Notes: generated from the letters alone by a model not told the origin. Counted from the first letter of the stretch, positions 13,095-62,862 are shown. The stretch: DNA of 64,000 nucleotides from Natronoarchaeum mannanilyticum (GCF_039522665.1 NZ_BAAADV010000001.1:1437792-1501791); one strand, 5' to 3'. Made by a program: numbers and translations.

Positions 13095-13277
13095 GCTACC
13101 TGATCGTCGCCGTCCTCACCGTCGTCCCGACGTTTATATGCGATCGGGCGGCGACCGCCGACGTGACCTGACCGCAGCTCCGGCGCGGTCCAGGCGGGTG
13201 CGCGGCGTCCCGCGTCGGGGTGTGACTGCAACTGGTAGAAAACGCCGCCTGTCAGCTCCGAAGCCTCCCGCGACGGC

Positions 13278-25981: not shown

Positions 25982-26313
25982 CCCGACCGTTCCGAACGCT
26001 CATTAACAAATACGTCGATTTTTCTGAAAGAAAAGACCGTTAACACGGTAGATCGTCGTATTATTTGTTTTTGAACGGTTCCCGTTAATGTTCTCGGTGA
26101 GCGTTCACCGCCTGGGATCGCGACACGCGGCGCGCGGCGTGCCGCGTCGACCTTCGTCGCGTCGCCCGGGTGTCTCGACGTCCGCGCGTCGATGCCGCTG
26201 GGGCGCCGTCGTCGCGCCGCGTCGGTCGACGGGCCGGCACTCGTCGACCCGACAGATCCGGAAGTCGGATGGAAAGGTATAGGGCGCCGACCCGCCGAAT
26301 CACGTACAAGCTG

Positions 26314-28983
26314 ATGAGTATGGAGAGCTACGACCACGCCGCCGTCGAGGCCCGCTGGCAGGAGGCGTGGGACGACGCGGACGTGCATCGGACGCCCGAC
26401 GACGTCGAGGACCCGACGTACGTCCTCGGGATGTACCCCTACCCCTCCGGAAAGCTCCACATGGGCCACGTCCGGAACTACACGATCACGGACGCCTACG
26501 CCCGCTATCGGCGGCTGCGCGGCGACGACGTGCTCCACCCGATGGGGTGGGACTCCTTCGGACTGCCCGCCGAGAACGCCGCCAAGGAGCGCGACACGAA
26601 CCCGCGGGACTGGACGTTCGACTGCATCGACACCATGAAAGGCCAGATGGAGTCGATGGGCTTCGGGTACGACTGGGACCGCGAGATCACCACCTGCACG
26701 CCCGAGTACTACCGATGGAACCAGTGGCTGTTCCGACGGTTCGTCGAGGAGGACCTCGCCGAGCGCCGGGACGCCGAGGTCAACTGGTGTCCCCACTGCG
26801 AGACCGTCCTCGCGGACGAGCAGGTCGAAGGCGAAGAGGAGCTGTGCTGGCGCTGCGACAACCCGGTCGAGCAGCGCGAACTCGAACAGTGGTTCCTGCA
26901 AATCACCGACTACGCCGACGAGCTGCTGGAGGACATCGACGAGCTGGAGGGCTGGCCCGACTCGGTCCGCCAGATGCAGCGCAACTGGATCGGCCGCCAG
27001 CACGGCACGCATCTCCCCTTCGACGTCGACGCCGCCGACGGGAGCGCCGAGTACGGCACGGTCACCGCCTTCACGACGCGCGCCGACACGATCCACGGCG
27101 CGACGTTCTTCGCGCTGGCGCCGGACCACCCGATTGCCGAGGAGCTGGCCGAGACTGACGACGCGGTTCGCGAGTTCGTCGAACACGAGGCCGACCCCGA
27201 CGGCGACGAGCCCAACGGCGTCGAGACCGATCTGGTCGCCACCAACCCCGTCAACGGCGACGAACTGCCCGTCTACGTCGCCGACTTCGTGCTCTCCGAC
27301 GTCGGCACCGGCGCGCTGATGGCCGTGCCCGCCCACGACGAGCGCGACCACGCGTTCGCAGAGAAGAAGGGCATCGACGTCCGGCCCGTGATCGCACCCG
27401 AACCCGAGGAGGGCGAGGATCCCGAGGCACCCGACGTCTCGGAGGAAGCGTTCACCGAGGACGGCGTGCTGGTCAACTCCGGCGAGTACTCCGGGCTGGA
27501 CAGCGAGGAAGCTCGCGAGCGCATTACCCAAGACACCGAGGGCGCCGAGGAGGCCACCCAGTACCGCCTGCGCGACTGGGGCATCTCCCGGCAACGCTAC
27601 TGGGGGACGCCGATCCCGGTCGTCCACTGCGACGACTGCGGCCCGGTGCTGGTGCCCGAGGAGGACCTGCCGGTCGAGCTGCCCGAGTTCGTCAACACCA
27701 CCGGGAATCCGCTGGACGCCGCCGACGAGTGGAAGCAGACCACGTGTCCCGACTGCGGCGGCGACGCCACGCGCGAGACCGACACGATGGACACGTTCTT
27801 CGACTCCTCGTGGTACTTCCTGCGGTACGTCTCTCCGGACCTGTCGGACGCTCCCTTCGACCTGGAGCGGGCCAACGACTGGATGCCCGTCGACCAGTAC
27901 GTCGGCGGCATCGAGCACGCCGTGATGCACCTGCTGTACTCCCGGTTCTTCACGAAGGTGCTGGCCGACGAGGAGAGCCTGGAGCACCGCGAGCCCTTCA
28001 CGAATCTGCTCGCCCAGGGGATGGTCCAGCTGGAGGGCGAGAAGATGTCCAAGTCCAAGGGCAACGTCGTCTCGCCCCAGCGCATCGTCGAGGAGTACGG
28101 CGCCGACACCGCGCGCCTGTTCATGATGCAGGCCGCCCGCCCCGAGCGGGACTTCGACTGGAAGGAGGAGGGCGTCCGCTCGACCCACCAGTTCCTGAAC
28201 CGGCTGAAGGACGTGGTCGAAAGCTTCGACGCCGACGACGCGGCGTCGGGCGACCGCGACCCGATCGACCGCTACGTCGCCGACGAGATCGACGCCGCCG
28301 TCGCCGTGGCGACCGACGAGTACGACTCGCTGACGTTCAACGAGGCGCTCCGCGAGGCCCAGTCGCTGGTTCGGACGCTCCGGCAGTACGATGAGCACGC
28401 CGACGTCCACGCCGAGACGTTCGAGCGCGGGCTGGACGTCGCGGTCCGCCTGCTGGCGCCGGTGACGCCCCACCTCGGCGAGGAGCTGTGGCAGGAGCTG
28501 GGCAACGACGGCTTCGTCGCCGAGGCCGAGTGGCCCGACGCCGACGTCGACCGCGAGACCGTTGAGCAGCGTCGCAACCTCGTCGAGAACACCCGCGAGG
28601 ACGTCCGCCAGATCGTCGACGTCGCCGGGATCGAGGACCCCGAGCGGATCGACGTCGTCGTGACGCCCGAGTGGAAGTACGACGCCCTGGAAATCGCCGT
28701 CGAATCGGACGCCGACAACCTGATCTCCGAGCTGATGCAGAACGGCGAGATCCGCGAACAGGGCGACGCCGCCGCGAGCTACGGGCAGGACCTGCAGGAA
28801 GAACGAGAGGCGCTCTCGAAGACGCTCGCGCCCGACGCCGAGTACGAGGCGCTGGAAGCCGCCGCGTGGCTGATCGAGCGCGAGTTCGACGCGCCGGTCC
28901 GCGTGGTTCGCGCCGCGGACGCCGACGACGACGTGGTCAGCAAAGCCGAACCCGGCCGGCCTGCGATCGACATCGTGGAGTAG
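26314..28983 (+). CDS. leuS: Leucyl-tRNA synthetase.
   Basis: Class I motifs HMGH and KMSKS, CP1 editing domain and archaeal LeuRS C-terminus. Start at MSMESY (26314). Confidence 0.95.
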   Translation: MSMESYDHAAVEARWQEAWDDADVHRTPDDVEDPTYVLGMYPYPSGKLHMGHVRNYTITDAYARYRRLRGDDVLHPMGWDSFGLPAENAAKERDTNPRDWTFDCIDTMKGQMESMGFGYDWDREITTCTPEYYRWNQWLFRRFVEEDLAERRDAEVNWCPHCETVLADEQVEGEEELCWRCDNPVEQRELEQWFLQITDYADELLEDIDELEGWPDSVRQMQRNWIGRQHGTHLPFDVDAADGSAEYGTVTAFTTRADTIHGATFFALAPDHPIAEELAETDDAVREFVEHEADPDGDEPNGVETDLVATNPVNGDELPVYVADFVLSDVGTGALMAVPAHDERDHAFAEKKGIDVRPVIAPEPEEGEDPEAPDVSEEAFTEDGVLVNSGEYSGLDSEEARERITQDTEGAEEATQYRLRDWGISRQRYWGTPIPVVHCDDCGPVLVPEEDLPVELPEFVNTTGNPLDAADEWKQTTCPDCGGDATRETDTMDTFFDSSWYFLRYVSPDLSDAPFDLERANDWMPVDQYVGGIEHAVMHLLYSRFFTKVLADEESLEHREPFTNLLAQGMVQLEGEKMSKSKGNVVSPQRIVEEYGADTARLFMMQAARPERDFDWKEEGVRSTHQFLNRLKDVVESFDADDAASGDRDPIDRYVADEIDAAVAVATDEYDSLTFNEALREAQSLVRTLRQYDEHADVHAETFERGLDVAVRLLAPVTPHLGEELWQELGNDGFVAEAEWPDADVDRETVEQRRNLVENTREDVRQIVDVAGIEDPERIDVVVTPEWKYDALEIAVESDADNLISELMQNGEIREQGDAAASYGQDLQEEREALSKTLAPDAEYEALEAAAWLIEREFDAPVRVVRAADADDDVVSKAEPGRPAIDIVE

Positions 28984-29062
28984 GGATTTCTGCGTCGAGC
29001 GTTTGTGGGCGAGCAAACTCCTCTCCACAAAGTATATTATCGGGAGTACAGACGCGAATAAT

Positions 29063-32446: not shown

Positions 32447-33250
32447 CTACACGACGTGCTCCGAATCGTACGAGCCGAGCCGTCGGACCCAGCCGTCCTC
32501 GGCGATGTGCTCGATCTCCGCGAGCGCCTGGGCCGTGCGGTCCTCGTACAGCCCCGCCGCGACGTCGATGTGGAACACGTAGTCGCCGAGTCGCTCGCCG
32601 CTCGGGCGGGACTCGACGCGCGTGAGGTTGATGTCGCGATCCGCAAAGGGTTCCAGCAGGTCAAGCAGGAGGCCGGGGTAGTCGGCGTTCGGGTAGACGA
32701 CGAACGTCGACTTGCCGCCCGCCGGCGAGCGGTCCTCCAGTGGTGCGAGCACGAAGAAGCGCGTCGCGTTCGAGTTCTGGTCCTGGATATCCTCGGCGAG
32801 CACCTCCAGCCCATCTCCCCCGTTATCGGGGTGGCCGATCCCGGCGACCGAGGCGTCGTCGCGGGCCATCTGGACGCCGCGGGCCGTGCTGGCGACCGCC
32901 TCCAGGTCGGCGTCGGGGTACTCCGAGTCGAGGTAGCCCCGGCACTGCGCGAGCGCCTGCGAGTGGCTGGCGATCCGGTCGAACTCCTCGCCCTGGGCGA
33001 GCAGTGCGTGGCGGATCGGCGTCACGACCTCCTTGACGACCGCGACTTCATACTCCGCGAGAGCGTCGAGACTCTCGGTGACGCTGCCCTCGATGCTGTT
33101 CTCGATGGCGACGACGCCCCGGTCGTACTCGCCGTCGGCGACGGCGTCGACGATCGCCGTCACGGACTCGCGGAAGTCGACCGTATCGGAGATCGACCGG
33201 GCCGCGCGGTGGGAGTAAGTTCCCTCGGGGCCCAGCGTTACTACGTTCAT
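32447..33250 (-). CDS. pheA: Prephenate dehydratase.
   Basis: PDT domain (TRF…ESRP motif: TRVESRPS) plus a C-terminal ACT domain. Confidence 0.9.
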   Translation of the reverse strand: MNVVTLGPEGTYSHRAARSISDTVDFRESVTAIVDAVADGEYDRGVVAIENSIEGSVTESLDALAEYEVAVVKEVVTPIRHALLAQGEEFDRIASHSQALAQCRGYLDSEYPDADLEAVASTARGVQMARDDASVAGIGHPDNGGDGLEVLAEDIQDQNSNATRFFVLAPLEDRSPAGGKSTFVVYPNADYPGLLLDLLEPFADRDINLTRVESRPSGERLGDYVFHIDVAAGLYEDRTAQALAEIEHIAEDGWVRRLGSYDSEHVV

Positions 33251-33347
33251 TACCCGTCGCTACGCCGTTCCGGGTGAAAAGCGACGCGATTACGACAGGT
33301 TCGGTCGGCGGACGAGAGCGCGGGCACGGCGTCGACCGGAGACGCCG

Positions 33348-33527
33348 TCACTCCCGCCCCTCGATCCACCACGTGCACCTGCAGTCGGGATCGAGGCACT
33401 CGTAGAACTCCGCCAGCACGCGACCGTCGAGGTCCGTCTTCTCGCCGCCGTAAAGCGCCACCGTGCCGCACTCCGGACATCTCTCCTGCTGTTCCACCTC
33501 CCCCGCAGAAAGTTCGACGGTCTCCAT
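33348..33527 (-). CDS. Unlisted small Zn-finger protein (59 aa).
   Basis: METVELSAGEVEQQERCPECGTVALYGGEKTDLDGRVLAEFYECLDPDCRCTWWIEGRE: CPxCG-type ribbon with strong GC3 bias. Not in the track (under 60 aa) and overlapped by an artefactual 154-aa ORF. Confidence 0.55.
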   Translation of the reverse strand: METVELSAGEVEQQERCPECGTVALYGGEKTDLDGRVLAEFYECLDPDCRCTWWIEGRE

Positions 33528-33584
33528 GCAGGATTGTACGGCGCTCCGGCGTAAAACCGTACGTCCCAGATACTAGCACTGGAT

Positions 33585-33868
33585 CTACGTTCGCCGCCAC
33601 TGGACGCCGACGCCGATCGCCGCGACGAACGCGCCCACCGCCAGCAGTTCGACGACCGCCTCGACGCCGCCGCTCGTTCCCTTCGCGATCTGAAAGAAAC
33701 TCCACGCGAGCCACATCAGCGCCATCGCCGACTGCGCGAAGAACCCGGACCGAGAGATGCGCTCCTGACGATGCTGGTAGCCGACCCAGCCAAGCACGCC
33801 GACGACGCCAGCGCGAAGACGGTCCCGAGCGTGGCGTCCGGGACGCCGAACACGGCCACTACGAACAT
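33585..33868 (-). pseudogene. Small membrane protein gene interrupted by a frameshift (about 95 aa if repaired).
   Basis: ATG at 33868 opens MFVVAVFGVPDATLGTVFALASSAC…. After about 25 codons the hydrophobic protein continues in another frame (…LGWVGYQHRQERISRSGFF…MALMWLAWSFFQ…), which is the track ORF 33585-33797. Confidence 0.35.
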
Positions 33869-34057
33869 GGTACTATTCGTCTACCGTAATTTGATAAATA
33901 CTCACATCCGCGACCGAACGCATCGGTTCGTTGCGGCGTGCGTGCCAAATGTTTATTGTCGAACGGCGGTGATTGTCCCACAACCTATGTCTTTCAAGAT
34001 GACACGATATCCCCTGAAGCGGGTGCGGCGTCGGCATCCGGTACGAGGTGGTGAGCG

Positions 34058-35863
34058 ATGAACTGTCCGGACTGCGCGACGGACGTCGGCGAGAGCGCGC
34101 AGTACTGTCCGAACTGCGGGGCCCGGCTCGCCGAGCACTGTCCCGACTGCGGAGCCGACAATCCGGCCGCGGCGAACTTCTGTGCGGAGTGCGGTACCGA
34201 CCTCTCGGCGAGCGCGTCCGACGACGCCTCGGACGCCGACGCCGCGGCGGACGACGCGCCCGAGGACGTGTTCCGGCTGACGGGCGGGACGTTCGCGCGG
34301 CGCGTCTCCGGCGACGCGCTGGAAGCCGACGGGCTGTTGAGCCGTCTCAAGAACGAACAGCGGATCAAGATCGAAGCCGGCACCGAGGCGCTGGTGATCC
34401 GGGACGGCGAACTCGCCGAGACGCTGTCGGCCGGGGAGCACACTCTCGACGACATCACGCGCCAGGTCGCGGAGGCGCGGACGTCCCAGTCGCTGTCGGT
34501 CGTCCTCGTCCGGCGCGGCGACACGCCGCTGACGTTCGCGGTCTCGGACCTGCTCACCGCCGACGGCGTGCAGGTGTCGGCCGAACTGGAGCTGGTCGCG
34601 ACCGTCGACGACGAGGAATCGTTCTTCCGGAACCTCATGTCCGGCCGGGACGCCGTCACCCGCGAGACGTTCCGGTCGCTGCTGGGGCCGGCGATCCGGG
34701 ACGAGCTGGAGGCCCGCGTCAGCGAGTACGAGCGCTCCGAACTGTACGGTAACGACGGCCTCAAGCGGGATCTGGAAGCCGTCGTCACGGATCGCCTCTC
34801 GGACGTGCTCGGGCGCAACGGACTGGAGCTGCTGAGCGTCCGTTCGTTCGAGTACGACGACGGTCGCGAGGAGCTCCGCGAGGAACGCACCGAGCTCGCG
34901 AACCGCGAGGAGCGCGAGTCGCTGCGCGACGAGGCGGCCGACCTCGACAAGCAGGCTCGCGAACGCGAGACCGGCGACGAGATCCACGCCGCACGCCAGG
35001 AGGCCCGCCAGGAGCTCACCGAGAACGCGGCGTCCCACGAGGTCGAGAAACAGGAGGTCGAACACGACCACGAGATCGACGACGCCGAGCGCGAACACCG
35101 CCACGAGGCCGAGCGCGAGGACGTCGAGCACACCCAGGAGATCGAGACCCGGCGCACCGAGGGCGAGGTCGACCGGCGCGAGCTCGAACACGAGCAGGAC
35201 GTCTCCGAGATGGAGGACATGATCGAGCTCAAAGACGAGAAGGAGCGCCTCGACGTCGAGCGGGAGAAAGAGCGCCTCGACGCCCGCGACGACGTCGACG
35301 CCCAGACGCTCGCATCGCTGGAGGACGCCGACGACAGCGTGGCCGACATCGCCCGGATGGAGGCCGCCGAGGATCTCTCGGCCGAACAGCTCGACTCGCT
35401 GGGCGCCCGCGAGAGCGACGAGCTCGCGAAGGCCCGTCAGGAGGCAAACAGCGCCGAGGTCGAGCGCAAGCGCGTCGAGGACCAGAAGGAGTTCCGCGAC
35501 GACCTCAAGGACGTCGCCGGGGACGCGATGGACCGCACCCAGGAGACGACCGAATCCGCGATGGACAACATGGGCGAGACGGCGACCGAGGCCGCGCGCG
35601 ACGGCCCGGTGCCCGACGACGAGGACGACGAAGACGACGAGCGCTCGCGGGGTCGCGGCGGCGGGGACGCCGAACCGCAGGACGCTGACCGATCCGGGGC
35701 GTCGGACGGTGGCGGCGCGGACGCAGGCACGAGCGACGCGACCGAAACGGCCGACGCATCCGGCGCGACCGGCGCGGGGTCTCGCGAGTGTCCCGACTGT
35801 GGCGCGTCCGTCGCGGCGGACGACGGCTTCTGCACCGACTGCGGCGCGACCCTCGGTGAGTGA
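34058..35863 (+). CDS. Zn-ribbon / SPFH(band-7)-like / coiled-coil / Zn-ribbon protein.
   Basis: N-terminal double Zn ribbon (CPDC…CPNCG…CPDCG…CAECG). Central SPFH-like fold. Long E/R/D-rich coiled coil. Acidic disordered region. C-terminal CPDCG…CTDCG ribbon. Confidence 0.65.
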   Translation: MNCPDCATDVGESAQYCPNCGARLAEHCPDCGADNPAAANFCAECGTDLSASASDDASDADAAADDAPEDVFRLTGGTFARRVSGDALEADGLLSRLKNEQRIKIEAGTEALVIRDGELAETLSAGEHTLDDITRQVAEARTSQSLSVVLVRRGDTPLTFAVSDLLTADGVQVSAELELVATVDDEESFFRNLMSGRDAVTRETFRSLLGPAIRDELEARVSEYERSELYGNDGLKRDLEAVVTDRLSDVLGRNGLELLSVRSFEYDDGREELREERTELANREERESLRDEAADLDKQARERETGDEIHAARQEARQELTENAASHEVEKQEVEHDHEIDDAEREHRHEAEREDVEHTQEIETRRTEGEVDRRELEHEQDVSEMEDMIELKDEKERLDVEREKERLDARDDVDAQTLASLEDADDSVADIARMEAAEDLSAEQLDSLGARESDELAKARQEANSAEVERKRVEDQKEFRDDLKDVAGDAMDRTQETTESAMDNMGETATEAARDGPVPDDEDDEDDERSRGRGGGDAEPQDADRSGASDGGGADAGTSDATETADASGATGAGSRECPDCGASVAADDGFCTDCGATLGE

Positions 35864-35907
35864 CCGATGCACCGCCAGCGAGACGCCGATCGATCGGGAA
35901 CCGACCG

Positions 35908-36888
35908 ATGAAGGCGTACGTTTCGACCGAGCGCGACGACGGGAAAGTCGAGATCGACGGGACGGCGGCGATCTACCGCGACCCCGAGCGGGGCCACGCG
36001 ATCGTCGTCGAGAGCGGCGGCCGCGACGTCGCGCTCGACGTGGCCGACGCGACCGTCTCCCGGCGCTCCGACGGCGACGCGCCGATCGTCGTCGAACTTG
36101 CCGACTCCCGTGTAGAGGTCCGGAACAACGGGAACGCGAACGGACTCACCGTCACCAGCGGCGGGCAGACCGAGTCGGTGCCCGAGGATCGGGTCGCGAC
36201 CGTCGACCGCGACGCGACGCTGTCGATCGGCGCGCGCGCGTCGATCGAACTCGTCGTCGAGCGGACCGCCGGCGTCACCAACGTCTACCACGAGGGGAGC
36301 GGCGACGTGGTCGCCGGCGACGTGACCACGGTCGACCGGTCGACGACGATCACCGACAGCGTGGTGAACCGATCCGACGTCGGAAGTTCGGGCGCGGACG
36401 GAGCCGACGGCGGATCGACGGCCGACGCAGCCGGCGGGGAGACGACCGTCGAGGACAGCGTGGTGAACCGCTCGGACGTCGGCGGATCGAACGCCGACGC
36501 GGCAGACGGACGGGCGTCCGACCTGACGGACGAGCGGATGGCCGACCCGACGGACGAACGGCCGCAGAACCCGGAGAACGACGACGGCGCGCGGACGCAG
36601 CGCATCTGCGACGAGCACGGCCCCTACGCGCCGCCGGAGTGTCCCGAGTGCGAGCGGTCGGCGGCGTCCGACGCCGGTGGGCGATCGGACGGCTCGACGT
36701 CCGGTCGGAGCGCCGACTCGTCGTCCGGCGATGCTGACGCGGCGTCCGGGGGAGAGGACGCGGCGTCCGGCGGTACTGACGAGGCGTCCGACGGTGACGA
36801 CGAGGCGACGCAGTTTTGCATCTTCTGCGGCGAGGGGATTCCGGCCGGCGCGGCGTTCTGCCCGGAGTGTGGAGAAGAGCTGCCCTGA
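35908..36888 (+). CDS. FHA-like domain protein with C-terminal Zn ribbons.
   Basis: N-terminal ~110 aa with FHA-like landmarks (GRDVALDVADATVSRRS…NNGNANGLTV…ATLSIGARASIEL). Central S/D/G-rich disordered region. C-terminal CPECERS…CIFCGEG…CPECGEE. Confidence 0.55.
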   Translation: MKAYVSTERDDGKVEIDGTAAIYRDPERGHAIVVESGGRDVALDVADATVSRRSDGDAPIVVELADSRVEVRNNGNANGLTVTSGGQTESVPEDRVATVDRDATLSIGARASIELVVERTAGVTNVYHEGSGDVVAGDVTTVDRSTTITDSVVNRSDVGSSGADGADGGSTADAAGGETTVEDSVVNRSDVGGSNADAADGRASDLTDERMADPTDERPQNPENDDGARTQRICDEHGPYAPPECPECERSAASDAGGRSDGSTSGRSADSSSGDADAASGGEDAASGGTDEASDGDDEATQFCIFCGEGIPAGAAFCPECGEELP

Positions 36889-36935
36889 CGCCGCTGCCGC
36901 CTCAGAATCTGTTCTGGACCGGTCCGTTCGTCCGC

Positions 36936-39620
36936 TTACGCCTGCGTCTCGTCCGCGAGGTCGGCGAGCGCGTCCCGCAGGTACAGCACCGACTCGTAGC
37001 GGTCCGCCTTCTCGCGTTCGAGCGCCGGCATCAGCACGTCGTCGAGTTCGGCGGGCAGCGACGGGTCGGCCTCGCTGGGGGGCTGGATTTCGTCTTCGAC
37101 GACCCGCGTGAGCACCTCGCCGCCCTCGCCCTCGAACGGCGGGCGGCCGACGAACAGGTCGTAGAAGACCGCCCCCAGCTGGTACACGTCGGTCGACTGG
37201 TCGGGATCGCCGAACCGATCGGCGTCGACCTGCTCCGGCGCGGCGTAGCGCGGCGACAGCCCCTCGACGCCGCCGTCGTCGTGGAGCAGCGCCCGCGCGA
37301 GCCCCCAGTCGGCGACCTTCGGCACCGGCCAGCCGCCGTCGTTCGTCCGGAACAGCACGTTCTCGGGCTTGAGATCGAGGTGGGCGACGCCCCGCGAGTG
37401 GGCGTGCTGGACGCCGTCGCTCACGCAGCGGGCCGTCCAGACGGCCTGGTCGAAGGGGAGTTCGCCCGCGTAGTTCGAGAGGTCCCCTCCGTCCATGTAC
37501 TCCAGAAGCATCCACGGGAGCGGCTCGGCGTCCCAGTCGATCACGCCGACGATGAAGTCGTGATCGTCCAGCCCCGCCCAGGTCTCGGCCTCCTCGACGA
37601 ACGACTCCATCGTGTCGGCGTGGAGCGTCCCCTGCATCCGCGGCTCTTTCAGTGCGGCGTCTATTTCCCCGTCACCGGCGGGGATCGTCGCCCGGAACAC
37701 CTCGGCGCTGCCGCCTTCGCCGAGCCGGTCGCCCCGCTCGATATCGGCGTACTCGACGTCGGCGTCCGGCGCGACCGGGATGACGTCGGGAGCACCGTCG
37801 GCCGCACTCTCTCCCGACGTCGATTCGGCACTGGCGGCGTCGGCTCCGGCGGCACCAGCGTCTCCCGCGGCGTCAGCGGCGCGCACGGCCTCTGTCGCGT
37901 CGCCCTCGTCCGGCTCGACGACTGTCGGCGTCCCGTCGCCGATCCCGAGGACGGCCCGGCGGGCCGCGTCGGCGTTCTCCTCGGCGACCGAGCGGAGGTG
38001 CGCCAGCCGGTCCCGTAGCTCTCCGTCGTCGACGGCATCGGTCGCGTCGTCGGCGTCCTCGGCAGCCGCGGTGAACGCGTCGCGGGCCGACTCGTATCGG
38101 CCGTCCCGGAACGTCGCGATGCCGTCGTCGAGCTGGCGTTCGATCCCGGCGACGTACGTCTCGCCGCGCCTGCGCTCGGCGGTCTCGCGGACGCGTTCGA
38201 GTTCGTCGGTCGCCTCGACGCCGCGCTCGTTCGCGCGTTCGAGCGCGACGGTCGCGTGGTCGACCGCCTCGGAGAACGCCGAGCGGGCGTCGTCGAAGTC
38301 CCCGTCGTTCGCTCGCGCGTCCGCCTCCTCGAGACGCGCCTGAGCCGCGTCGGTGAGGACAGTCGCGTACGCCTCCTGTGCCTCCTCGCGGACGAGTTCG
38401 AGGTTTCGGCCCGACAGCGCCTCGGTGTCGTCGAGCGCGGCCAGCACCTCCTCGATCTCGTCGATCGCCCGCTCCCGGTTCTCGGCGTCGGTCGATCGGG
38501 CGTCGTTCACGCGCGCGACGAACCACTTACGCTCGCTCTCCGCGCTTAGATCCCTGGCCTCGTCGCGCAGCGCCATCGCCTCGTCCGTCTCGACGCCGGC
38601 CGTTCCGGCGTGGTCGATCGCGGTCTCGGCTTCGCCGGCGGCCTCGGCGGCCAGTTCGGCGGCGTCGCCGTACGCCTCGTCCGCGGCGGCGCTCTCGGCC
38701 GCCTCGAACTTCGAGCGGGCCGTCTCGATCGCCGACTCGTAGTCGGCCTCGTGCCGGCGCTTTCGCGCGGTCTCGCGTTTCCCGGAGAGGCGCTCTCTGA
38801 CCGTCGAGAGCCGCTCGGCCAGCGCCGGGTTTTCCTCGGGATCGACGTCGCCGACCTCCTTCAGCGCGGCCCTGACGTCGCCGAAGGCGTCGTGGGCGGC
38901 CGCGAACTCGCCGGCCTCCATGCGAGCGTTTCCGGTCGCGAGTTTCTCCTCGGCCCGGTCGAGCGCTTCGCCGACGTCCGTCGCGTTCCGCGCGTGTCGG
39001 AACCGAACGAGCGAGTACAGCGGGACCGTCAGAACGTTGAATCCCCAGACGGCCGTCAGAAGCGTCCACAGCCGGGTCGAGAGCGACTCCTGGGTCGTTC
39101 GGTTGAGCGTCTTCGCGTCGGCGTACACCGCGAGCGGGGTCAGCAGGTACGTCAGAATGAACGTCGAATATAGGGCGTTGGTCGTCATGCCGGAACTGCT
39201 TGACCCCGCTAGCAGGCTGCCGAACTGGACGACGAAGGTCGCCCAGACGACCGCGTGCCAAGGCACCGATCGACCGTGACGTCCGTACCGGGCGAGCGCG
39301 TAGGCCGCGACCACGCCGGACGACAGTATCGGGACGATGGTACCTGCCGGCCACAGCCACGAGGGAGGATCGTCCGCCGACCGTCGCTGCTTGACGTCGT
39401 ACGCGACGGCTCCGATACCACCGAGCCAGCTCACGAGATAGAGAACCGCGAGCGAGCCGCTGCCGTTGGCGTCGCCGCCGAAAGCGAGCGGGCCGACACA
39501 CTGGACCAGCGCGATGCCGGCCAGCGCGTACGTCCAGACTGCGTCCGGGCGATCGTTCGATACGTCCTTCGCCGACTCGGCGTCCGCCTTCCGCACGTCA
39601 TCTTCCCTGGTGACACTCAT
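36936..39620 (-). CDS. Membrane-anchored Hanks-type Ser/Thr protein kinase (6 TM N-terminus, long helical linker, C-terminal kinase).
   Basis: Kinase subdomains: GEGGSAEVF (Gly loop), ALK (Lys), HLDLKPENVLF (catalytic loop), VADWGLA (DFG-equivalent), APE. Six N-terminal hydrophobic helices and an ~350-aa Ala/Glu/Arg-rich helical region. Confidence 0.88.
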   Translation of the reverse strand: MSVTREDDVRKADAESAKDVSNDRPDAVWTYALAGIALVQCVGPLAFGGDANGSGSLAVLYLVSWLGGIGAVAYDVKQRRSADDPPSWLWPAGTIVPILSSGVVAAYALARYGRHGRSVPWHAVVWATFVVQFGSLLAGSSSSGMTTNALYSTFILTYLLTPLAVYADAKTLNRTTQESLSTRLWTLLTAVWGFNVLTVPLYSLVRFRHARNATDVGEALDRAEEKLATGNARMEAGEFAAAHDAFGDVRAALKEVGDVDPEENPALAERLSTVRERLSGKRETARKRRHEADYESAIETARSKFEAAESAAADEAYGDAAELAAEAAGEAETAIDHAGTAGVETDEAMALRDEARDLSAESERKWFVARVNDARSTDAENRERAIDEIEEVLAALDDTEALSGRNLELVREEAQEAYATVLTDAAQARLEEADARANDGDFDDARSAFSEAVDHATVALERANERGVEATDELERVRETAERRRGETYVAGIERQLDDGIATFRDGRYESARDAFTAAAEDADDATDAVDDGELRDRLAHLRSVAEENADAARRAVLGIGDGTPTVVEPDEGDATEAVRAADAAGDAGAAGADAASAESTSGESAADGAPDVIPVAPDADVEYADIERGDRLGEGGSAEVFRATIPAGDGEIDAALKEPRMQGTLHADTMESFVEEAETWAGLDDHDFIVGVIDWDAEPLPWMLLEYMDGGDLSNYAGELPFDQAVWTARCVSDGVQHAHSRGVAHLDLKPENVLFRTNDGGWPVPKVADWGLARALLHDDGGVEGLSPRYAAPEQVDADRFGDPDQSTDVYQLGAVFYDLFVGRPPFEGEGGEVLTRVVEDEIQPPSEADPSLPAELDDVLMPALEREKADRYESVLYLRDALADLADETQA

Positions 39621-39779
39621 GACAGACCGGTTATCCGATTGGGGAAGTAACTCTGCCGGAGCGAGTAAAGTGCTTTGGACGCCGGCTCCGCGTCGTTCCG
39701 CTCCCGTCGCGGGAGCGTCCGGTCGGGTTGCCAGCGTCTTCCCGATCCGGTCGTCGTAGCGATTCTCGTTTCCGGACGC

Positions 39780-41270
39780 CTATCGATTCAGCGTGTGGAT
39801 CGCGTGGCCCAGCGCGTTCTCGGCGGCCTCCATCACGGCTTCCGAGAGCGTCGGGTGGGTGTGGACCGTCGCGGCGACGTCCTCGACGGTGGCGCCCAGT
39901 TCGACGGCCAGCCCGATCTCGGCGATCAGCTCGGAGGCCTCAGGGCCGACGACCTGCCCGCCGAGCACGAAGCCCGATTCCTCGTCGGCGACCAGCCTGA
40001 CGAACCCGTCGGACTCGCCGGTCGTGAGCGCCCGGCCGCTCGCGCGGAACGGGAACTCGCCGACCATCGGCTCGAACCCTTCCGCCTCGGCCTCTTCGGC
40101 TGTGAGCCCGACGGTGCCGATCTCGGGGTCGGTGAACACCGCGGCGGGGATCGCCTGGTAGTCCAGCGCCGCGGGCTCGCCGGCGATCACTTCCGCGGCG
40201 ACCTGCCCCTCCTTGCTGCCCTTGTGAGCCAGCATCGGCTCGCCCGCCACGTCGCCGACGGCGAAGACGTGCTCGACGTCGGTCCGGGCCTCCTCGTCGG
40301 TCTGCAGGAAGCCCCGGTCGTCCGGTTCGAGGCCGATCGCCTCGGGGTTCACCGTGTCGGTGACCGGCTCGCGCCCGACCGCGACGAGCACCTTCTCCGC
40401 CTGCAAGCTGAGCCCCTCGTCCTCGGCATCCTCGCTTTCGGCGTCCTCCACCTCCGCCTGTTCGCCCCCGTCCGCGGCGGCGCCGCCCGCCGGCTCCGTC
40501 TCGACCGTCACCGTCCCGTCGCCGGTGTGGTGCCACTCGCTGGCGGTCTGGCCGAAGTGGAACTCGACGCCGAGCTCCTCGGCGCGCTTTTTCACTGGTC
40601 GCGCGAGGTCGTCCTCGTAGCCCGGCAGCGCCTGGTCTAACATCTCGATCACGGTGACGTCGGTGCCGAGCTTGGCGAACACGCCCGCCAGCTCCATCCC
40701 GATGTAGCCCGCGCCGACGACCACCAGCGAATCGGGCACCGTATCGAGCGCCAGCGCCTGCCGCGAGTCTAGAACGGGCTCGTCGTCGTAGGCGAACCCG
40801 GGGATCTCGATCGGTCGCGAGCCCGTCGCGACGACCGCGTGCTCGAACTCGATCGTCTCCGACCCCTGCCCCTCGCCGCCGTGCACGACGCGGGCCTCGT
40901 GCTCGCCGGCGAACTCCGCGCGGCCCTCCACGATGTTGACCTGGTTGGCCTTGCAGAGCTTCTCGACGCCGCCGGTGAGCTGGTCGACGACGCCGCCTTT
41001 CCACTCCTGCATCCCGCTCAGATCCACGGCGGGGTCGGCGTGGATCCCCATCTCCTCGGCGTTGGCGGCGTCGTGGGCGACGTCCGTCGCCGAGAGCAGC
41101 GCCTTCGAGGGGATGCAGCCGTGGTTGAGGCAGGTGCCACCCACGGCGTCGTCCTCGACGAGCGTCACGTCCAGATCGAGCTGTCCGGCCCGGATCGCGG
41201 CGACGTAGCCCGCCGGTCCGCCGCCGATCACCAGTACGTCCGTCCCTGTCGCGATGTCTCCGACGACCAT
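39780..41270 (-). CDS. lpdA: Dihydrolipoamide dehydrogenase (E3).
   Basis: GGGPAGY FAD motif, redox CLNHGC disulfide, NAD-binding GAGYIGME and a C-terminal dimerisation HTHPT motif. Confidence 0.95.
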   Translation of the reverse strand: MVVGDIATGTDVLVIGGGPAGYVAAIRAGQLDLDVTLVEDDAVGGTCLNHGCIPSKALLSATDVAHDAANAEEMGIHADPAVDLSGMQEWKGGVVDQLTGGVEKLCKANQVNIVEGRAEFAGEHEARVVHGGEGQGSETIEFEHAVVATGSRPIEIPGFAYDDEPVLDSRQALALDTVPDSLVVVGAGYIGMELAGVFAKLGTDVTVIEMLDQALPGYEDDLARPVKKRAEELGVEFHFGQTASEWHHTGDGTVTVETEPAGGAAADGGEQAEVEDAESEDAEDEGLSLQAEKVLVAVGREPVTDTVNPEAIGLEPDDRGFLQTDEEARTDVEHVFAVGDVAGEPMLAHKGSKEGQVAAEVIAGEPAALDYQAIPAAVFTDPEIGTVGLTAEEAEAEGFEPMVGEFPFRASGRALTTGESDGFVRLVADEESGFVLGGQVVGPEASELIAEIGLAVELGATVEDVAATVHTHPTLSEAVMEAAENALGHAIHTLNR

Positions 41271-41364
41271 TGAATGGCCCTTCGGTCCGGAGCAAGTAGT
41301 AGGTGGGGTCGGCGAACGGTCAGTAGGCGGAGTCGGCGAACGGTCGCCCCCCGGCCCGGGTGCG

Positions 41365-41422
41365 GCGTCACACTGTGTGACGCTCTGACGATAACACCGG
41401 TGTAACCACCTGACACCGGTGT
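41365..41422. promoter_or_regulatory. Cluster of perfect palindromes in the lpdA/LUD divergent intergenic region (candidate operator sites).
   Basis: A 19-bp palindrome gcgtcacac-t-gtgtgacgc at 41365-41383. Two copies of the 10-bp palindrome acaccggtgt at 41394-41403 and 41413-41422, 19 bp centre to centre. Both lie just upstream of a ttaagg box at about -30 of the LUD gene. Confidence 0.5.
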
Positions 41423-41466
41423 CCGCGAGAGGTTAAGGATGTGCCGCCGCAACTAACAGTACGATC

Positions 41467-42120
41467 ATGTCGCAGAAATCTGACTACGCAGACGACGCCG
41501 ACGTCGACGCGACGCTCGACCAGCTTCCCGACGACGAGACGATCGAGGAGACGGTCGCCAATCTCGAAGCCAACGGGTTCGAGGTCGTCGTGGTCGACTC
41601 GCGCGAGGAGGCGCTCGACGCCGTGCAGTCCCAGATCCCCGCGGGGGCGTCCGTGATGAACGGTCACTCGACGACGCTCGAGGAGATCGGCTTCGTCGAG
41701 CACCTGAGCGAGGGCGACCACGAGTGGGAGAGCCTGCCCGACCAGATCTGGAGCATCGACGACGACGAGGAGCGCCAGGCCGCCCGCCGCGAGTCCCAGA
41801 CCGCCGACTACTTCCTCGGCGGCATCAACGCCATCTCTCAGACCGGCGAGCTCGTCGCCGCCGACCGCTCGGGCAGCCGCGTCGGCGCCTACCCCTTCGC
41901 CGCCGGCAACGTCGTGATCGTCAGCGGCGTCAACAAGATCGTCCCGACGCTCGACGACGCGCTCGACCGGCTCGAAGACGTCGCGTACCCGCTCGAAAAC
42001 GAGCGCGCGCAGGACGCCTACGGCGTCGACTCCGCGATCGCCAAGCAGCTCATCTTCCGCCAGGAGCTCGAAGAGGGCCGCACGACGGTCGTGCTCGTCC
42101 GCGAGCAGCTGGGCTACTGA
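41467..42120 (+). CDS. LUD-domain (LutC/YkgG-like, DUF162) protein.
   Basis: Lactate-utilisation-like fold (…FLGGINAISQTGELV…GNVVIVSGVNKIV…). Confidence 0.7.
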   Translation: MSQKSDYADDADVDATLDQLPDDETIEETVANLEANGFEVVVVDSREEALDAVQSQIPAGASVMNGHSTTLEEIGFVEHLSEGDHEWESLPDQIWSIDDDEERQAARRESQTADYFLGGINAISQTGELVAADRSGSRVGAYPFAAGNVVIVSGVNKIVPTLDDALDRLEDVAYPLENERAQDAYGVDSAIAKQLIFRQELEEGRTTVVLVREQLGY

Positions 42121-42135
42121 GCGCCGCTCCCCTCG

Positions 42136-43839
42136 CTACTCTAACAGCAGCAGCGACGGCTCTTCGAGGTACTCTTTCAGCGTGTTAGTAAAGCGGGCGG
42201 CGTCGGCGCCGTCGACGACCCGGTGGTCGATCGACAGGCTGAGCGGCAGCGTCTCGCGCGCCACCACCTCGCCGTCTTCGGCGACGGGTCGCTCGTCGAT
42301 CGCGCCGAGCCCGAGGATCGCCACTTCGGGGTGGTTGATGATCGGCGTCGCGAAGTCGCCGCCGATGCCGCCGAAGTTGGTGATCGTGAACGTGCCGCCC
42401 TGCATCTCGGCGCGCTCGATCGACCGTTCGCGGGCCTTCTGGACGAGTTCGTTCGTCTCGGAGGCGACCTGCAACAGTCCCTTCTCGTCCACGTCGTCGA
42501 CGACCGGCACCATCAGCCCCGCCTCGGTGTCGGCGGCGACGCCGACGTTGTAGTAGCGCTTCTCGACGATCTCCTCGGCCTCCTCGTCGAGTTGGGCGTT
42601 GACGATCGGATGCTCCTTCAGCGCCGCGACGCAGGCCTTCATCACGAACGGCATGTAGGTTAGGCGGATGCCCCGCTCCTCGGCCTCGGGCTTGAGGCGC
42701 TCGCGAATCTCGACCAGCCGGGTCGCGTCCGCGGTGTCGTGGTGGGTGACGTGGGGCGCGGTGAACTTCGACTGGCTCATCCGCTCGCCGATCGTCCGCC
42801 GGACGCCGCGGTAGGGTCGACGTCGCTCGCGCTCGCCCTCGACCGCAGTTGCCTCCGCAGCGTCACCGGTCGACGCCGCGGCGTCGTCCGCCGACTCCGC
42901 CGCGGGAACGTCGGCGTCCTGCACCTGCAGCGCCTGCACGTCGGCCTCCTGGGCCTCGCGCTGAGCCTGCGCGTACTCGCGGACAGCATCCTCGCTGACG
43001 AACGCCTCGCCGTCGCGCTGTTCGGTCGCCGGCACCGCGTTCAGATCGACGCCCTTCTCGCGGGCGACGCGGCGGGTCGCCGGCGCGGCGAGCGTCCGGT
43101 CGCGGTCGGCGGCGTCGGTTCGGGTGGCCTGTCCGCTCGCCTCGCCGGTCGGCGCCGATCCCTGCGACGCGGCGTCGGTCGGGGCATCCGTCGCTTCGGC
43201 GTCCGTCGTCGCTTCGGCGTCGGTCGACCCCGTTGTCGCCGCGTCGCCTCCCGCAGCCGCTTGCTCGGCGCCGCCGCTCGCGGCCGCCCGGACGTCGCCG
43301 GCGGTGACGCGCCCGCCCGGTCCGGAGCCCTCGACCGACCCGAGGTCGACGCCTTCCTCCCGGGCCAATCGTCGGACGCTCGGCGGTGCGAACACCCGGC
43401 CGCTCGACGCCGTCTCGGCGTCCGGCTCGACCGCGGTCTCGGTTTCGGGATCGCCGGTTTCGGCTGGTTCGGCGTCGGCGCCGCCGGTCGCCTGGGCGTC
43501 GTCTGCGGCTCGCGCTTCGACCTCGGCCTTCTCGGTGTCGGCTTCCTCAGCTTCGGGTTCGGCCTCCGCTTGGGCGTCCGCCTCGGCCGCCGATTCCTCG
43601 CCCGCAACGTCGAAGGTGATGATCACCTCGCCGACGGGGACGACCTCGCCCTCCTCGGCCAGGATCTCTCTGACCGTCCCGTCGACCGGCGCGGGCACGT
43701 CGACGACCGCCTTGTCGGTCTCGACCTCCGCGACGGGCTGGTCCTCCTCGACCGCGTCGCCCGGTTCGACGAGCCAGCGGACGATCTCGCCCTCCGCGAC
43801 CCCCTCGCCGACGTCGGGGAGTTTGAACTCTCGTACCAT
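42136..43839 (-). CDS. pdhC: Dihydrolipoamide acyltransferase (E2) of a 2-oxoacid dehydrogenase complex.
   Basis: Lipoyl domain (ETDKA lipoyl-lysine), long Ala/Glu/Asp-rich linkers, E3-binding domain and a catalytic domain with DHRVVDG. Confidence 0.92.
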   Translation of the reverse strand: MVREFKLPDVGEGVAEGEIVRWLVEPGDAVEEDQPVAEVETDKAVVDVPAPVDGTVREILAEEGEVVPVGEVIITFDVAGEESAAEADAQAEAEPEAEEADTEKAEVEARAADDAQATGGADAEPAETGDPETETAVEPDAETASSGRVFAPPSVRRLAREEGVDLGSVEGSGPGGRVTAGDVRAAASGGAEQAAAGGDAATTGSTDAEATTDAEATDAPTDAASQGSAPTGEASGQATRTDAADRDRTLAAPATRRVAREKGVDLNAVPATEQRDGEAFVSEDAVREYAQAQREAQEADVQALQVQDADVPAAESADDAAASTGDAAEATAVEGERERRRPYRGVRRTIGERMSQSKFTAPHVTHHDTADATRLVEIRERLKPEAEERGIRLTYMPFVMKACVAALKEHPIVNAQLDEEAEEIVEKRYYNVGVAADTEAGLMVPVVDDVDEKGLLQVASETNELVQKARERSIERAEMQGGTFTITNFGGIGGDFATPIINHPEVAILGLGAIDERPVAEDGEVVARETLPLSLSIDHRVVDGADAARFTNTLKEYLEEPSLLLLE

Positions 43840-43842
43840 GCG

Positions 43843-44868
43843 TTAGAACTCCACGGCCTCCCGGATTCCCTCTTCGATGCGGGCGGGTTCGGGCAGGTAG
43901 AAGTCCTCCAAGGCGTACAGCGGGAACGGCGTGTCGAAGCCGGTGACCCGCTCGACGGGCGCTTCCTGGTAGAGCAGCGCCTCCTCCTGGAGGATCGCCG
44001 TGATCTCGCCGGCCAGCCCGCCGGTGCGGGGCGCCTCGTGGACGACGACCGCGCGGCCGGTCTTCTCGAAGGAGTCGACGATCGTCTCGCGGTCGAGCGG
44101 CGACAGCGAGCGCAGATCGACGACCTCGACGTCGATGTCGCCGTCGAGGTTCTCCGCGGCCTCCTCGGTCCGGTGGGCCATCGCGCCCCAGGCGTAGGCG
44201 GTGACGTCCGATCCCTCCCGGCGCACGGTCGCCTCGCCCAGCGGCACCTCGTAGGGTTCTCGGGGGACGTCGCCGCGGAACGCCCGGTAGATCAGCTTCG
44301 GTTCGAGGAAGAGGACGGGATCGGGGTCGCGGATCGCGCTGATGAGCATCCCCTTGGCGTCGTACGGCGTCGAGGGGACCGCCACCTTGAGGCCGGGCTG
44401 GTGGACGAAAAACGCCTCCGTCGACTCGGAGTGGTGCTCGGGCGCGCGGATGCCGCCGCCGTACGGCGCCCGGACGACCATCGGGCAGGTGTAGCGCCCG
44501 CGCGAGCGCGTCCGCAGGCGGGCGGCGTGGGAGACGAGCTGGTCGAACGCGGGGTAGATAAAGCCCATGAACTGCACCTCGGCGACCGGTTTGAGACCGT
44601 AGGCGGCCATCCCGATCGCGCTGCCGACGATGCCCGACTCCGCGAGGGGAGTGTCGATCACCCGGTCCTCGCCGAACTCCTCGTACAGCCCGTCGGTGGC
44701 GCGGAACACGCCGCCGTTCTTGCCGACGTCCTCGCCCATCACCAGCACGTCGTCGTCGCGGGCGAGTTCGGTCGCCATCGCCTCTCTTACTGCTTCGACC
44801 AGCGTCAGCGAGTCGGTGTCGACGGTACCCGGATCCGGCGTCTCGGTGGATTGCTGTTTGCTCGCCAT
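43843..44868 (-). CDS. pdhB: 2-oxoacid (pyruvate) dehydrogenase E1 beta subunit.
   Basis: Transketolase-like pyrimidine-binding and C-terminal domains (…VIDTPLAESGIVG…). Confidence 0.92.
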   Translation of the reverse strand: MASKQQSTETPDPGTVDTDSLTLVEAVREAMATELARDDDVLVMGEDVGKNGGVFRATDGLYEEFGEDRVIDTPLAESGIVGSAIGMAAYGLKPVAEVQFMGFIYPAFDQLVSHAARLRTRSRGRYTCPMVVRAPYGGGIRAPEHHSESTEAFFVHQPGLKVAVPSTPYDAKGMLISAIRDPDPVLFLEPKLIYRAFRGDVPREPYEVPLGEATVRREGSDVTAYAWGAMAHRTEEAAENLDGDIDVEVVDLRSLSPLDRETIVDSFEKTGRAVVVHEAPRTGGLAGEITAILQEEALLYQEAPVERVTGFDTPFPLYALEDFYLPEPARIEEGIREAVEF

Positions 44869-44870
44869 GG

Positions 44871-45980
44871 TCAGTCCTCCAGGAAGGTCTCGTCGCCGTG
44901 CGTTTCGCGGAGCCGTCGGAAGTACTCCAGTTGCTGTTCGAGTCGCTTCGGCATATCCTGATACACGTGGCGGAACATCGCCTCGGGGTCGGGGCGCTCG
45001 GCCGATTCGGCCGTGTCGATGGCGTCGGCGACGCGCTCTTCGATCCCGTCTTCGATCGCGGCGACGCGCTCGTCGTCGAGCCGCCCCGTCGAGCGCAGGA
45101 ACGTCTCTAGGCGCGGGATCGGGTCTTTCTGCTTCCAGCGCTCGACCTCCGCTTCCTCGCGGTAGACGCTAGGGTCGTCGGCGGTGGTGTGGGCGCCGAA
45201 TCGGTACTGCACCGCCTCGATCAGCGTCGGGCGCAGCTCGCCGTCGTCGGGGTCCTTGGCTTTCTCGATCGCCTCGCGGGTCACCTTGTACACCGCCAGC
45301 GGGTCCATCCCGTCGACCTGTACGCCCTCGAACCCGTACGCCTCGGCCTTCTGGGCCAGCGTTGCGCTGGCGGTCTGGCGCCCGCGGGGCACCGAGATCG
45401 CCCACTGGTTGTTGTTACAGAAGAAGATCGCCGGCACGTCGAACACGCCGGCGAAGTTCAACCCCTCGTGGAAGTCGCCCTCGCTGGTCGCGCCGTCGCC
45501 GAAGTAACAGAGGAAGGCGCGATTTTCCCCTTTGAGCTTCGAGGCCCAGGCCGCCCCGGTCGCGTGGGGGATCTGGGTGGCGATGGGGACGGCGGGCGTG
45601 AACATATTGACGTCCTCGGGCACTCTGGTTCCCTCCTCGCTGCCCATCCAGTACAGCAGTGTCCGCTCTAGAGGCATCCCCCGGATCATCACCGCGGCGT
45701 GCTCGCGGTAGCTCGGGAAGATCCAGTCCTCCTCGGCCAGCGCGCGGGCGCTGCCGACCTGCGAGCCCTCCTGGCCGGACATCGGGGGATACGTCCCCAT
45801 CCGGCCCTGCCGCTGGAGGCTCACCGCCCGCTCGTCGAACCGCCGCGCCAGGCGCATGTCCCGGTACATCTCGATCATCGCCTCGTCGTCGAGATCGGGA
45901 ACCTCGGCGCCCTCGCGCACCCGACCCGCGTCGTCGAGCACCTGTACTCGCTCGTCGGGGTCGCGCTGTATCGTACTCAT
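44871..45980 (-). CDS. pdhA: 2-oxoacid (pyruvate) dehydrogenase E1 alpha subunit (TPP-binding).
   Basis: TPP motif [17 protein letters not shown]…NN and E1 alpha fold. Lies 3 bp upstream of pdhB. Confidence 0.92.
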
Positions 45981-61287: not shown

Positions 61288-62343
<1,056 letters not shown>

Positions 62344-62406
62344 CGTTGGAGACCCCTTCGCGCTGGTGTAAAAAGTCCTCGGAGCACCGCCGACGATACG
62401 GATCTC

Positions 62407-62817: not shown

Positions 62818-62826
62818 CTTTATAGT
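62818..62826 (+). promoter_or_regulatory. TATA box (ctttatagt) for the MC1 gene.
   Basis: About 37 bp upstream of the ATG at 62863. A second AT element aaatttatgta lies at about 62775-62786. Confidence 0.45.
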
Positions 62827-62862
62827 GGGGCATGTGCTCGGTTGGCATGGAGGTCCAAAATC

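Follow-up and report, generated by a model that had tools for sequence, protein, structure and literature searches.

We analysed a 64,000-nt window of the Natronoarchaeum mannanilyticum genome (Halobacteria, Natronoarchaeaceae; GCF_039522665.1 NZ_BAAADV010000001.1:1437792-1501791), in which three adjacent genes at positions 34058 to 39620 encode an SPFH/zinc-ribbon protein (protein 1), a divergent FHA/zinc-ribbon protein (protein 2) and a kinase with a putative membrane domain (protein 3). Our comparative analyses suggest that the trio is probably a pared-down form, kept by selection, of the phospho-signalling arm of the Halo_FHA system of haloarchaea, which belongs to the euryarchaeal systems resembling ESCRT (sorting complexes of the endosome that are needed for transport). 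The families and their neighbourhood were already catalogued in 2024; what is new is the reduced three-gene variant, whose kinase carries a lineage-specific six-segment domain. The three genes are as follows:

34058-35863, plus strand: protein 1, 601 amino acids (aa), WP_343773318.1, annotated as 'double zinc ribbon domain-containing protein'
35908-36888, plus strand: protein 2, 326 aa, WP_343773319.1, annotated as 'hypothetical / zinc-ribbon'
36936-39620, minus strand: protein 3, 894 aa, WP_343773320.1, annotated as 'protein kinase domain-containing'

Long spurious open reading frames (ORFs) are common in this genome of 70% GC. The three ORFs are true coding frames, as established from codon composition and selection: their GC content is 0.89-0.91 at third codon positions (GC3) and 0.45-0.56 at second positions, vs. 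a GC3 of 0.66-0.79 for the overlapping shadow ORFs, and the ratio of non-synonymous to synonymous substitution (dN/dS), determined against two relatives, is 0.16-0.36, indicative of purifying selection. The translations correspond letter for letter to the N. mannanilyticum proteins WP_343773318, WP_343773319 and WP_343773320, which, together with GC3 and dN/dS, confirms the three adjacent genes as they had been delimited in a first-pass annotation of the window. A decaying relic was ruled out by the dN/dS values and by the intact catalytic motifs of the kinase. The start of protein 2 is ATG 35908, both in the NCBI annotation and by comparison with its homologues, every one of which starts with M[RK][GA]Y at that point; proteins 1 and 2 are therefore separated by a 44-nt gap, and the overlap of the protein 1 stop with the FHA gene region that had been proposed does not exist. 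The convergent orientation of the genes for proteins 2 and 3, 47 bp apart, was described correctly. A scan of positions 33000-40000 against Rfam gave no match. The public annotation ('zinc-ribbon', 'hypothetical', 'protein kinase') overlooks both the FHA and the SPFH domain.

By sequence comparison and gene neighbourhood, all three families belong, in evolution as in context, to the euryarchaeal Halo_FHA ESCRT-like system and not to an archaellum network. As defined by Makarova et al. (2024, mBio, PMC10936438), the Halo_FHA clade has Vps4, ESCRT-III and an FHA family of its own, arCOG13166; Ser/Thr kinases (STK), Ser/Thr phosphatases (STP), arCOG09748 and arCOG08177 are found in some of its loci, and a role in the handling of phosphorylated proteins has been proposed for these ESCRT-like systems (PMC10936438). 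For the locus of Natronolimnobius baerhuensis, Table S1 of the same study contains arCOG15283 ('SPFH family protein, ESCRT system component'), arCOG13166, arCOG01307 (Vps4), arCOG07402 (ESCRT-III), arCOG08177 and arCOG03682 (STK). We found orthologues of all three window genes in this locus, the identities being 44% for protein 1, 40% for protein 2 and 50% for the kinase domain of protein 3, and as these orthologues appear in Table S1, all three window families have already been catalogued. The matching of accessions to genes (WP_087715646 for SPFH, WP_087715645 for FHA) was inferred from accession order, by which the gene beside ESCRT-III corresponds to the listed arCOG01307 Vps4, WP_087715647. 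The order of genes in N. baerhuensis is arCOG09748, arCOG08177, ESCRT-III, Vps4, SPFH/Zn-ribbon (592 aa), u264, FHA/Zn-ribbon (271 aa), PP2C, STK and STK (designations such as u264 are our family labels). The 44% identity spans aa 3-599 of protein 1 and was obtained with the 592-aa DZR+Band_7 gene adjoining Vps4 in locus L037. Common to the N. baerhuensis and window proteins are also an FHA signature, YRxPERG...LGVxDxTVSR, and a kinase signature, HLDLKPxN / DWG. In the window, unlike in N. baerhuensis, the SPFH and FHA genes directly adjoin each other and the kinase gene is convergent.

We collected ~35 loci around homologues and mapped the components on them. The first-pass annotation had named lack of co-occurrence of the three genes in other haloarchaeal genomes among the refuting results; the trio was found to co-occur in other haloarchaea, and an identical trio, including the six-segment kinase, is present in L038, with amino-acid identities of 86-93%, and in L010, with 56-65%. 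In the remaining loci, homologues that span the full length of protein 2 adjoin kinases of the same subfamily, mostly carrying pyrroloquinoline quinone (PQQ) beta-propeller sensors and at times forming arrays of at least five genes. They also adjoin PP2C phosphatases and a block consisting of u227, an AAA ATPase, in some cases u266, the SPFH/Zn-ribbon protein and u253. The three families thus co-occur with each other and with genes for PP2C, ESCRT-III-like and Vps4-like proteins, arCOG09748 and arCOG08177; homologues of the last two were detected in L006, L027 and L031, and of arCOG09748 alone in L009 and L029. The FHA gene lies near Vps4 and ESCRT-III in L001, L004, L005, L006, L018/L031 and L037. 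That protein 2 homologues stand beside kinases of one subfamily, PP2C and protein 1 orthologues in many independent loci bears out the proposal of a kinase, phospho-reader and scaffold module.

The ESCRT-like character of the block was apparent from comparison with the Halomicrobium mukohataei locus of PMC10936438. The AAA ATPase of the cluster matches its Vps4 with an expectation value (E) of 1.5e-33 and 31% identity, u227 matches ESCRT-III at E=2.5e-6, and the PP2C and the kinase domain are each 42% identical. The u227 family also takes in N. baerhuensis, the Halo_FHA representative of PMC10936438. Identification of the AAA ATPase as Vps4 by its best PDB match was rejected, the best PDB matches being the D2 domain of Cdc48/VCP; the Vps4 assignment rests on the 31% identity to H. 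mukohataei Vps4 and on 64% identity to the N. baerhuensis gene adjoining ESCRT-III.

Several further features were seen in these loci. L018 and L031 are parts of one contig (Ga0207757_100043), on which at least five paralogous kinases of the protein 3 subfamily, mostly with PQQ propellers, surround the FHA gene; this array is immediately adjacent to the block of ESCRT-III, Vps4, SPFH and u253 and to the arCOG09748/08177 genes. In L004 the PP2C and FHA genes have between them a 104-aa ORF (7154-7468), which shares 56% identity with the window kinase's C-lobe and appears to be a kinase remnant. In L038 the DNA homology to the window extends from 33934, 124 nt upstream of protein 1, into lpdA, which is shortened to a 201-aa fragment (7242-7847) next to the intact trio, and genes for IS240-type and DDE_3 transposases flank the trio (814-1449, 13031-13480).

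Protein 2 belongs to a sub-branch with Zn ribbons within the ESCRT-associated FHA family of the arCOG13166 type. The following features were recognized in it, with the AlphaFold2 (AF2) model built from 23 homologues and its per-residue confidence (pLDDT) among the evidence:

35908-36267, plus strand: FHA-like beta-sandwich, aa 1-120 (AF2 model, Foldseek, blastp)
36319-36483, plus strand: two invariant DSVVNRS motifs with TxxD before each, aa 138-192 (invariant columns in 23 homologues; pLDDT <50)
36607-36651, plus strand: CHCC zinc knuckle C234, H237, C245, C248 (nearly invariant columns; pLDDT ~83)
36817-36870, plus strand: C-terminal zinc ribbon C304, C307, C318, C321 (invariant Cys; pLDDT ~90)

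In the model, aa 1-120 form a 12-strand beta-sandwich with pLDDT of 87-96, and this predicted domain has the topology of the FHA fold. Its top Foldseek match in the PDB is Sulfolobus ArnA, whose FHA domain (5a8i) aligns at E=1.4e-4 with a TM-score of 0.65 and 17% identity; dozens of other FHA domains (APLF, CT664, OdhI, GarA, DgcB, Rv1747) and a few SMAD MH2 domains are also among the matches. SMAD MH2 domains belong to the SMAD/FHA fold class. At the level of sequence the domain is highly divergent: Pfam FHA (PF00498) gave no match at E<=1, a profile of the domain found nothing in the PDB at E<=10, its hhalign alignment with GarA is weak (probability 3-10%), and the NCBIfam scan of the window proteins added nothing beyond Pfam. 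The link to a known family is provided by blastp, in which the domain is 30% identical (E=4e-7) to the arCOG13166 FHA domain of H. mukohataei (WP_012807434). The FHA assignment of the first-pass annotation therefore stands on the model, the fold search and this homology, and fails with Pfam.

The family is small, the FHA-domain profile retrieving 92 clusters among 1.84 billion representative proteins. In ~65 of 87 clusters the FHA domain is followed by a Cys-free helical tail, and arCOG13166 has been described as FHA fused to a CdvA-like helical domain, with WP_012807434 as an example (PMC10936438). Protein 2 shares with that family the homologous N-terminal FHA domain, but has the DSVVNRS repeats, the CHCC knuckle and the Zn ribbon in place of a CdvA-like helical C-terminus; the N. 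baerhuensis FHA member shows the same non-CdvA architecture. Within the FHA family Ser51 is conserved in 72 of 72 sequences, Arg52 in 61 and Asn78 in 51 of the 72, and Arg24, Asp47 and Gly108 are also strongly conserved. The weak hhalign alignment sets TVSRR over the canonical TVSRRHA and NANG over SLNG. The window protein has the arginine of the canonical GR (G38-R39), which is absent from most relatives; the SxxH His is replaced in the family. Binding of phospho-threonine by the FHA domain of protein 2 is hence plausible but unproven, because the GR arginine is missing in most members and the SxxH His in the family, and because the Pfam FHA model failed.

In the C-terminal half, TxxD occurs at aa 140, 147 and 180. 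The C-terminal ribbon scores 24.4 bits with Pfam Zn_Ribbon_1, slightly below the cut-off of 25. An FHA-less paralogue of this half was also found, with an N-terminal MPYC[DE]xHNEVYxGxxCPxC knuckle, an acidic spacer, repeats of the STTVxD / DSVVxxS type and a C-terminal Zn ribbon (L006 8460-9029; L007 9906-10760; L023 ~7190-7867; L027 447-1235; L029 ~8670-9191). It mostly adjoins the u253 gene in ESCRT/SPFH loci. The knuckle, repeat and ribbon module is thus an independent unit, since it also stands on its own, with no FHA domain, in related loci.

Protein 1 is an SPFH/coiled-coil protein with Zn ribbons at both ends, as the first-pass annotation had it; it has no transmembrane segment and is an orthologue of the arCOG15283 type. 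Its features are:

34064-34195, plus strand: N-terminal double zinc ribbon with four CxxC pairs, aa 3-46 (Pfam DZR 53 bits, Zn_Ribbon_1 55 bits)
34280-34861, plus strand: SPFH (Band 7) alpha/beta domain, ~aa 75-268 (AF2 model, Foldseek, orthologues)
34865-35596, plus strand: long charged helical or coiled-coil region, aa 270-513 (AF2 helices 270-359, 373-412 and 454-513)
35780-35851, plus strand: C-terminal zinc ribbon, aa 575-598 (Pfam Zn_ribbon_3 at 577-597), preceded by an acidic disordered spacer

The Cys residues of the N-terminal double ribbon are invariant in 43 orthologues, and C578, C581, C592 and C595 of the C-terminal ribbon are invariant across orthologues. The AF2 model, built from the 43 orthologues, reaches pLDDT of ~80-90 over aa 150-270 and 50-77 over aa 75-150, and is predicted to combine an SPFH alpha/beta fold with a coiled coil. 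A Foldseek search with it gave prohibitin at E=5e-9, as well as HflK/C, erlin, flotillin, stomatin and QmcA, and the structural alignments reach into the coiled-coil walls of the prohibitin, HflK/C and flotillin cages. Pfam Band_7 (PF01145) has no match in the window protein even at E<=1, and the family profile had a single, weak match in the PDB, stomatin at E=0.37. The orthologue in L004, on the other hand, scores 39 bits with Band_7 vs. a cut-off of 23.6, and a precomputed PF01145 match is present in most of 42 orthologues. The SPFH assignment is accordingly upheld by the model, the fold search and the orthologues, and not by Pfam in the window protein itself. Failure of profile searches on FHA or SPFH had been named at the outset as part of what would refute the reading; the Pfam models did fail, and structure, fold search and orthologues reversed that result. 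Taken as the verdict, Pfam/NCBIfam scans would have led to the wrong rejection of both domains.

Protein 1 resembles prohibitin, HflK/C, flotillin, stomatin and QmcA, all SPFH proteins that form cages, in that a long coiled coil comes after the alpha/beta domain. Typical SPFH proteins carry an N-terminal transmembrane or hairpin anchor, whereas protein 1 has the double Zn ribbon there, and no hydrophobic segment was detected in it at Kyte-Doolittle >=1.4; its C-terminal Zn ribbon and the failed Pfam Band_7 model set it apart further. For a functional link between SPFH proteins and the ESCRT-III superfamily there is a precedent in YdjI-PspA of B. subtilis (cited in PMC10936438).

Protein 3 is an intact non-RD Hanks-type Ser/Thr kinase of the arCOG03682-type subfamily. 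Three regions can be distinguished:

36996-37739, minus strand: protein kinase catalytic domain, aa 628-875 (Pfam Pkinase E=1e-29)
37761-38975, minus strand: Ala/Glu/Asp/Arg-rich linker, aa 216-620, ~400 aa (composition windows)
39006-39542, minus strand: six hydrophobic segments with short loops, a putative intramembrane sensor or anchor, aa 27-205 (Kyte-Doolittle >=1.4)

The G-loop, the ALK Lys, the alphaC Glu, HLDLKPEN, DWG and APE are all there and are conserved in 10 locus-associated kinases, in agreement with the Hanks kinase originally described; HLDLKPEN (non-RD) and DWG are the signatures of the kinase subfamily adjoining protein 2 homologues. Of the six transmembrane helices proposed earlier, six hydrophobic segments were recovered, their number being taken from Kyte-Doolittle hydropathy alone; the positive-inside pattern is ambiguous by eye, and the topology is uncertain because Arg-rich loops lie on alternating sides. 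The linker is longer than the ~350 aa first given, and from its composition it is probably helical, with a probable disordered tail at ~aa 561-620. The six-segment domain is conserved only in L010 (47% identity, tblastn), where the linker is 42% identical; L038 has a kinase gene of similar length. Judged by comparison of the loci, the membrane domain and linker of the kinase are restricted to this lineage, whereas kinases in most other loci carry PQQ or other sensors (the N. baerhuensis kinases were left out of this comparison).

From the domains, homologies, conserved neighbourhoods and selection described so far we infer the following scheme, every interaction and biological output in which is conditional. 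The kinase would be held in the membrane by its six-segment domain and respond to a membrane-borne cue, phosphorylating threonines on itself, on a cargo protein or on the TxxD repeats of protein 2. Protein 2 would read the phospho-threonine with its FHA domain and couple through its repeat/Zn-ribbon half to protein 1, which may oligomerise via its coiled coil into a ring or cage at the membrane's cytoplasmic face. Where the locus is complete, such a platform could act with ESCRT-III/Vps4 in membrane remodelling or in the sorting of phosphorylated proteins, with PP2C resetting the system; in N. mannanilyticum the ESCRT-III, Vps4 and PP2C partners would be either more than 25 kb away or absent. 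To the role of a Halo_FHA-type system in archaea dividing with FtsZ, the three-gene version, with one kinase, one FHA reader and one SPFH scaffold, is the simplest genetic entry point, having the signalling arm apart from the ESCRT-III/Vps4 motor, and it permits direct tests of phospho-threonine reading, kinase substrates and recruitment of the anchor-less SPFH protein. As both the families and the association between them had been catalogued before, this is a modest advance in absolute terms.

Several observations weigh against assigning the trio to the Halo_FHA system. In contrast to the N. baerhuensis locus, the 64-kb window has no gene for ESCRT-III, Vps4, PP2C, u253/u264, arCOG09748 or arCOG08177, and the link to membrane remodelling is therefore drawn from relatives only. 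Of the informative protein 2 loci, about half lack an SPFH gene in the surrounding 10 kb, and the loci were retrieved with the DSVVNRS motif and hence are a biased sample. The coupling of proteins 1 and 2 via Zn ribbons or repeats is pure inference. Lastly, the literature searched contained no experimental study of the system or any member, and accordingly no interaction, substrate or phenotype for any of them. The module had been presented as not characterised in Euryarchaeota, which agrees with this outcome as far as experiments are concerned, but not with its computational cataloguing in 2024 (PMC10936438).

The same 64 kb without an ESCRT-III, Vps4 or PP2C gene would be expected if the trio were a self-sufficient membrane phospho-switch acting without ESCRT-III/Vps4, e.g., in membrane-stress sensing or scaffold assembly, which we regard as possible but rather unlikely. 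The six-segment-anchored kinase might in that case drive the FHA-dependent assembly of an anchor-less, Zn-ribbon SPFH cage. The three-gene arrangement has been kept in three lineages at 56-93% amino-acid identity and under purifying selection, the kinase of this lineage has its own membrane domain, and no N. mannanilyticum member is among the ESCRT-III-like matches listed. However, these are 120 of 218 matches, so absence of ESCRT-III from the whole genome does not follow; L010 is 5.7 kb long and hence uninformative on flanks, and in all other lineages the families sit in or beside ESCRT-like loci. If such a switch were real, the trio would represent the signalling core, with ESCRT modules secondarily added, or lost, in other haloarchaea, or else with the ESCRT genes lost from N. 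mannanilyticum.

The patchy distribution of the families, the plasmid location of the H. mukohataei locus and the insertion sequence (IS) elements flanking the L038 trio are features that would also suit an anti-virus or conflict system, in which the kinase/FHA/SPFH module triggers abortive infection or membrane sealing. Paralogous sensor-kinase arrays occur in some loci, and two models, PD-T4-6 and mad6, give scores with the kinase domain. Yet the PADLOC matches reflect a generic similarity of kinases and AAA proteins; no PADLOC defence model matches protein 1, protein 2, u227, u253 or PP2C, the flanks are housekeeping, and the trio has no effector (nuclease, TIR or pore-former), which makes a defence role improbable.

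The first-pass annotation had drawn a parallel with the ArnA/ArnB/ArnC/ArnD network of Sulfolobus acidocaldarius, and one may ask whether the FHA/Zn protein and its partner form a phosphorylation-dependent repressor complex under the kinase that regulates the archaellum or motility. The parallel holds at the level of the fold: the FHA domain of ArnA is the best structural match, both systems pair an FHA plus Zn-binding module with Hanks-type kinase partners, and two reports describe formation of the ArnA-ArnB complex as phosphorylation-driven (PMC6509490, PMC12852372). It does not extend to the rest of the locus. The similarity is confined to the fold (17% identity), and the domain order is reversed, as had been pointed out at first, with the Zn finger N-terminal and FHA C-terminal in ArnA vs. 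N-terminal FHA and C-terminal Zn sites in protein 2. ArnA is partnered by the vWA protein ArnB and is tied to the archaellum operon; the trio includes no vWA (ArnB-like) protein and has an SPFH partner instead. The annotated genes that flank the trio, over ~8 kb in one direction and 6 kb in the other, are of the housekeeping type (Hsp20, prephenate dehydratase, a 2-oxoacid dehydrogenase operon), with no archaellum genes among them, and the relatives lie in ESCRT-like, not archaellum, loci. An Arn-like regulator is consequently very improbable. Overall, what the first-pass annotation observed is confirmed and its interpretation partly supported: the reading as a phospho-signalling module is upheld, but the Arn network is not the closest relative and the module was not unrecognised.

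The dehydrogenase operon adjoining the trio recalls the mycobacterial and corynebacterial GarA/OdhI with PknB/PknG, likewise a small FHA protein with a Hanks kinase, whose intramolecular phospho-switch logic is a possible analogy for the TxxD repeats of protein 2. That the trio regulates the adjoining 2-oxoacid dehydrogenase complex in this manner is nonetheless scarcely credible: GarA and OdhI are among the structural matches, and the kinase gene follows lpdA in the same direction after 159 nt, an adjacency shared outside the window only with the close relative L038, but no E1, E2 or E3 gene was found nearby in any of 37 other loci (375 kb), which makes such a regulator unlikely, lpdA is shortened in L038 where the trio is intact, the profile similarity to GarA is weak, and the FHA domain is at the extreme N-terminus of protein 2, leaving no ETTS-type acceptor tail.

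The operon itself is complete, with E1alpha, E1beta, E2 and E3 at 39780-45980 on the minus strand and a LUD-domain gene inserted on the plus strand. On the other side of the trio, the ~800-nt stretch between pheA and protein 1 contains ORFs at 33348-33527 and 33585-33868, both on the minus strand; besides one or two small hydrophobic ORFs, this stretch has a 59-aa ORF for a zinc-finger micro-protein with CPEC...C..PDC. These small ORFs leave a true intergenic region of only ~190 nt upstream of protein 1, which is AT-richer. Further away, a 1016-aa ORF (25978-29028, minus strand) had no Pfam match at E<=1e-5, and the last part of the window, 62001-64000, has a GC content of 0.605 vs. a window mean of ~0.69.

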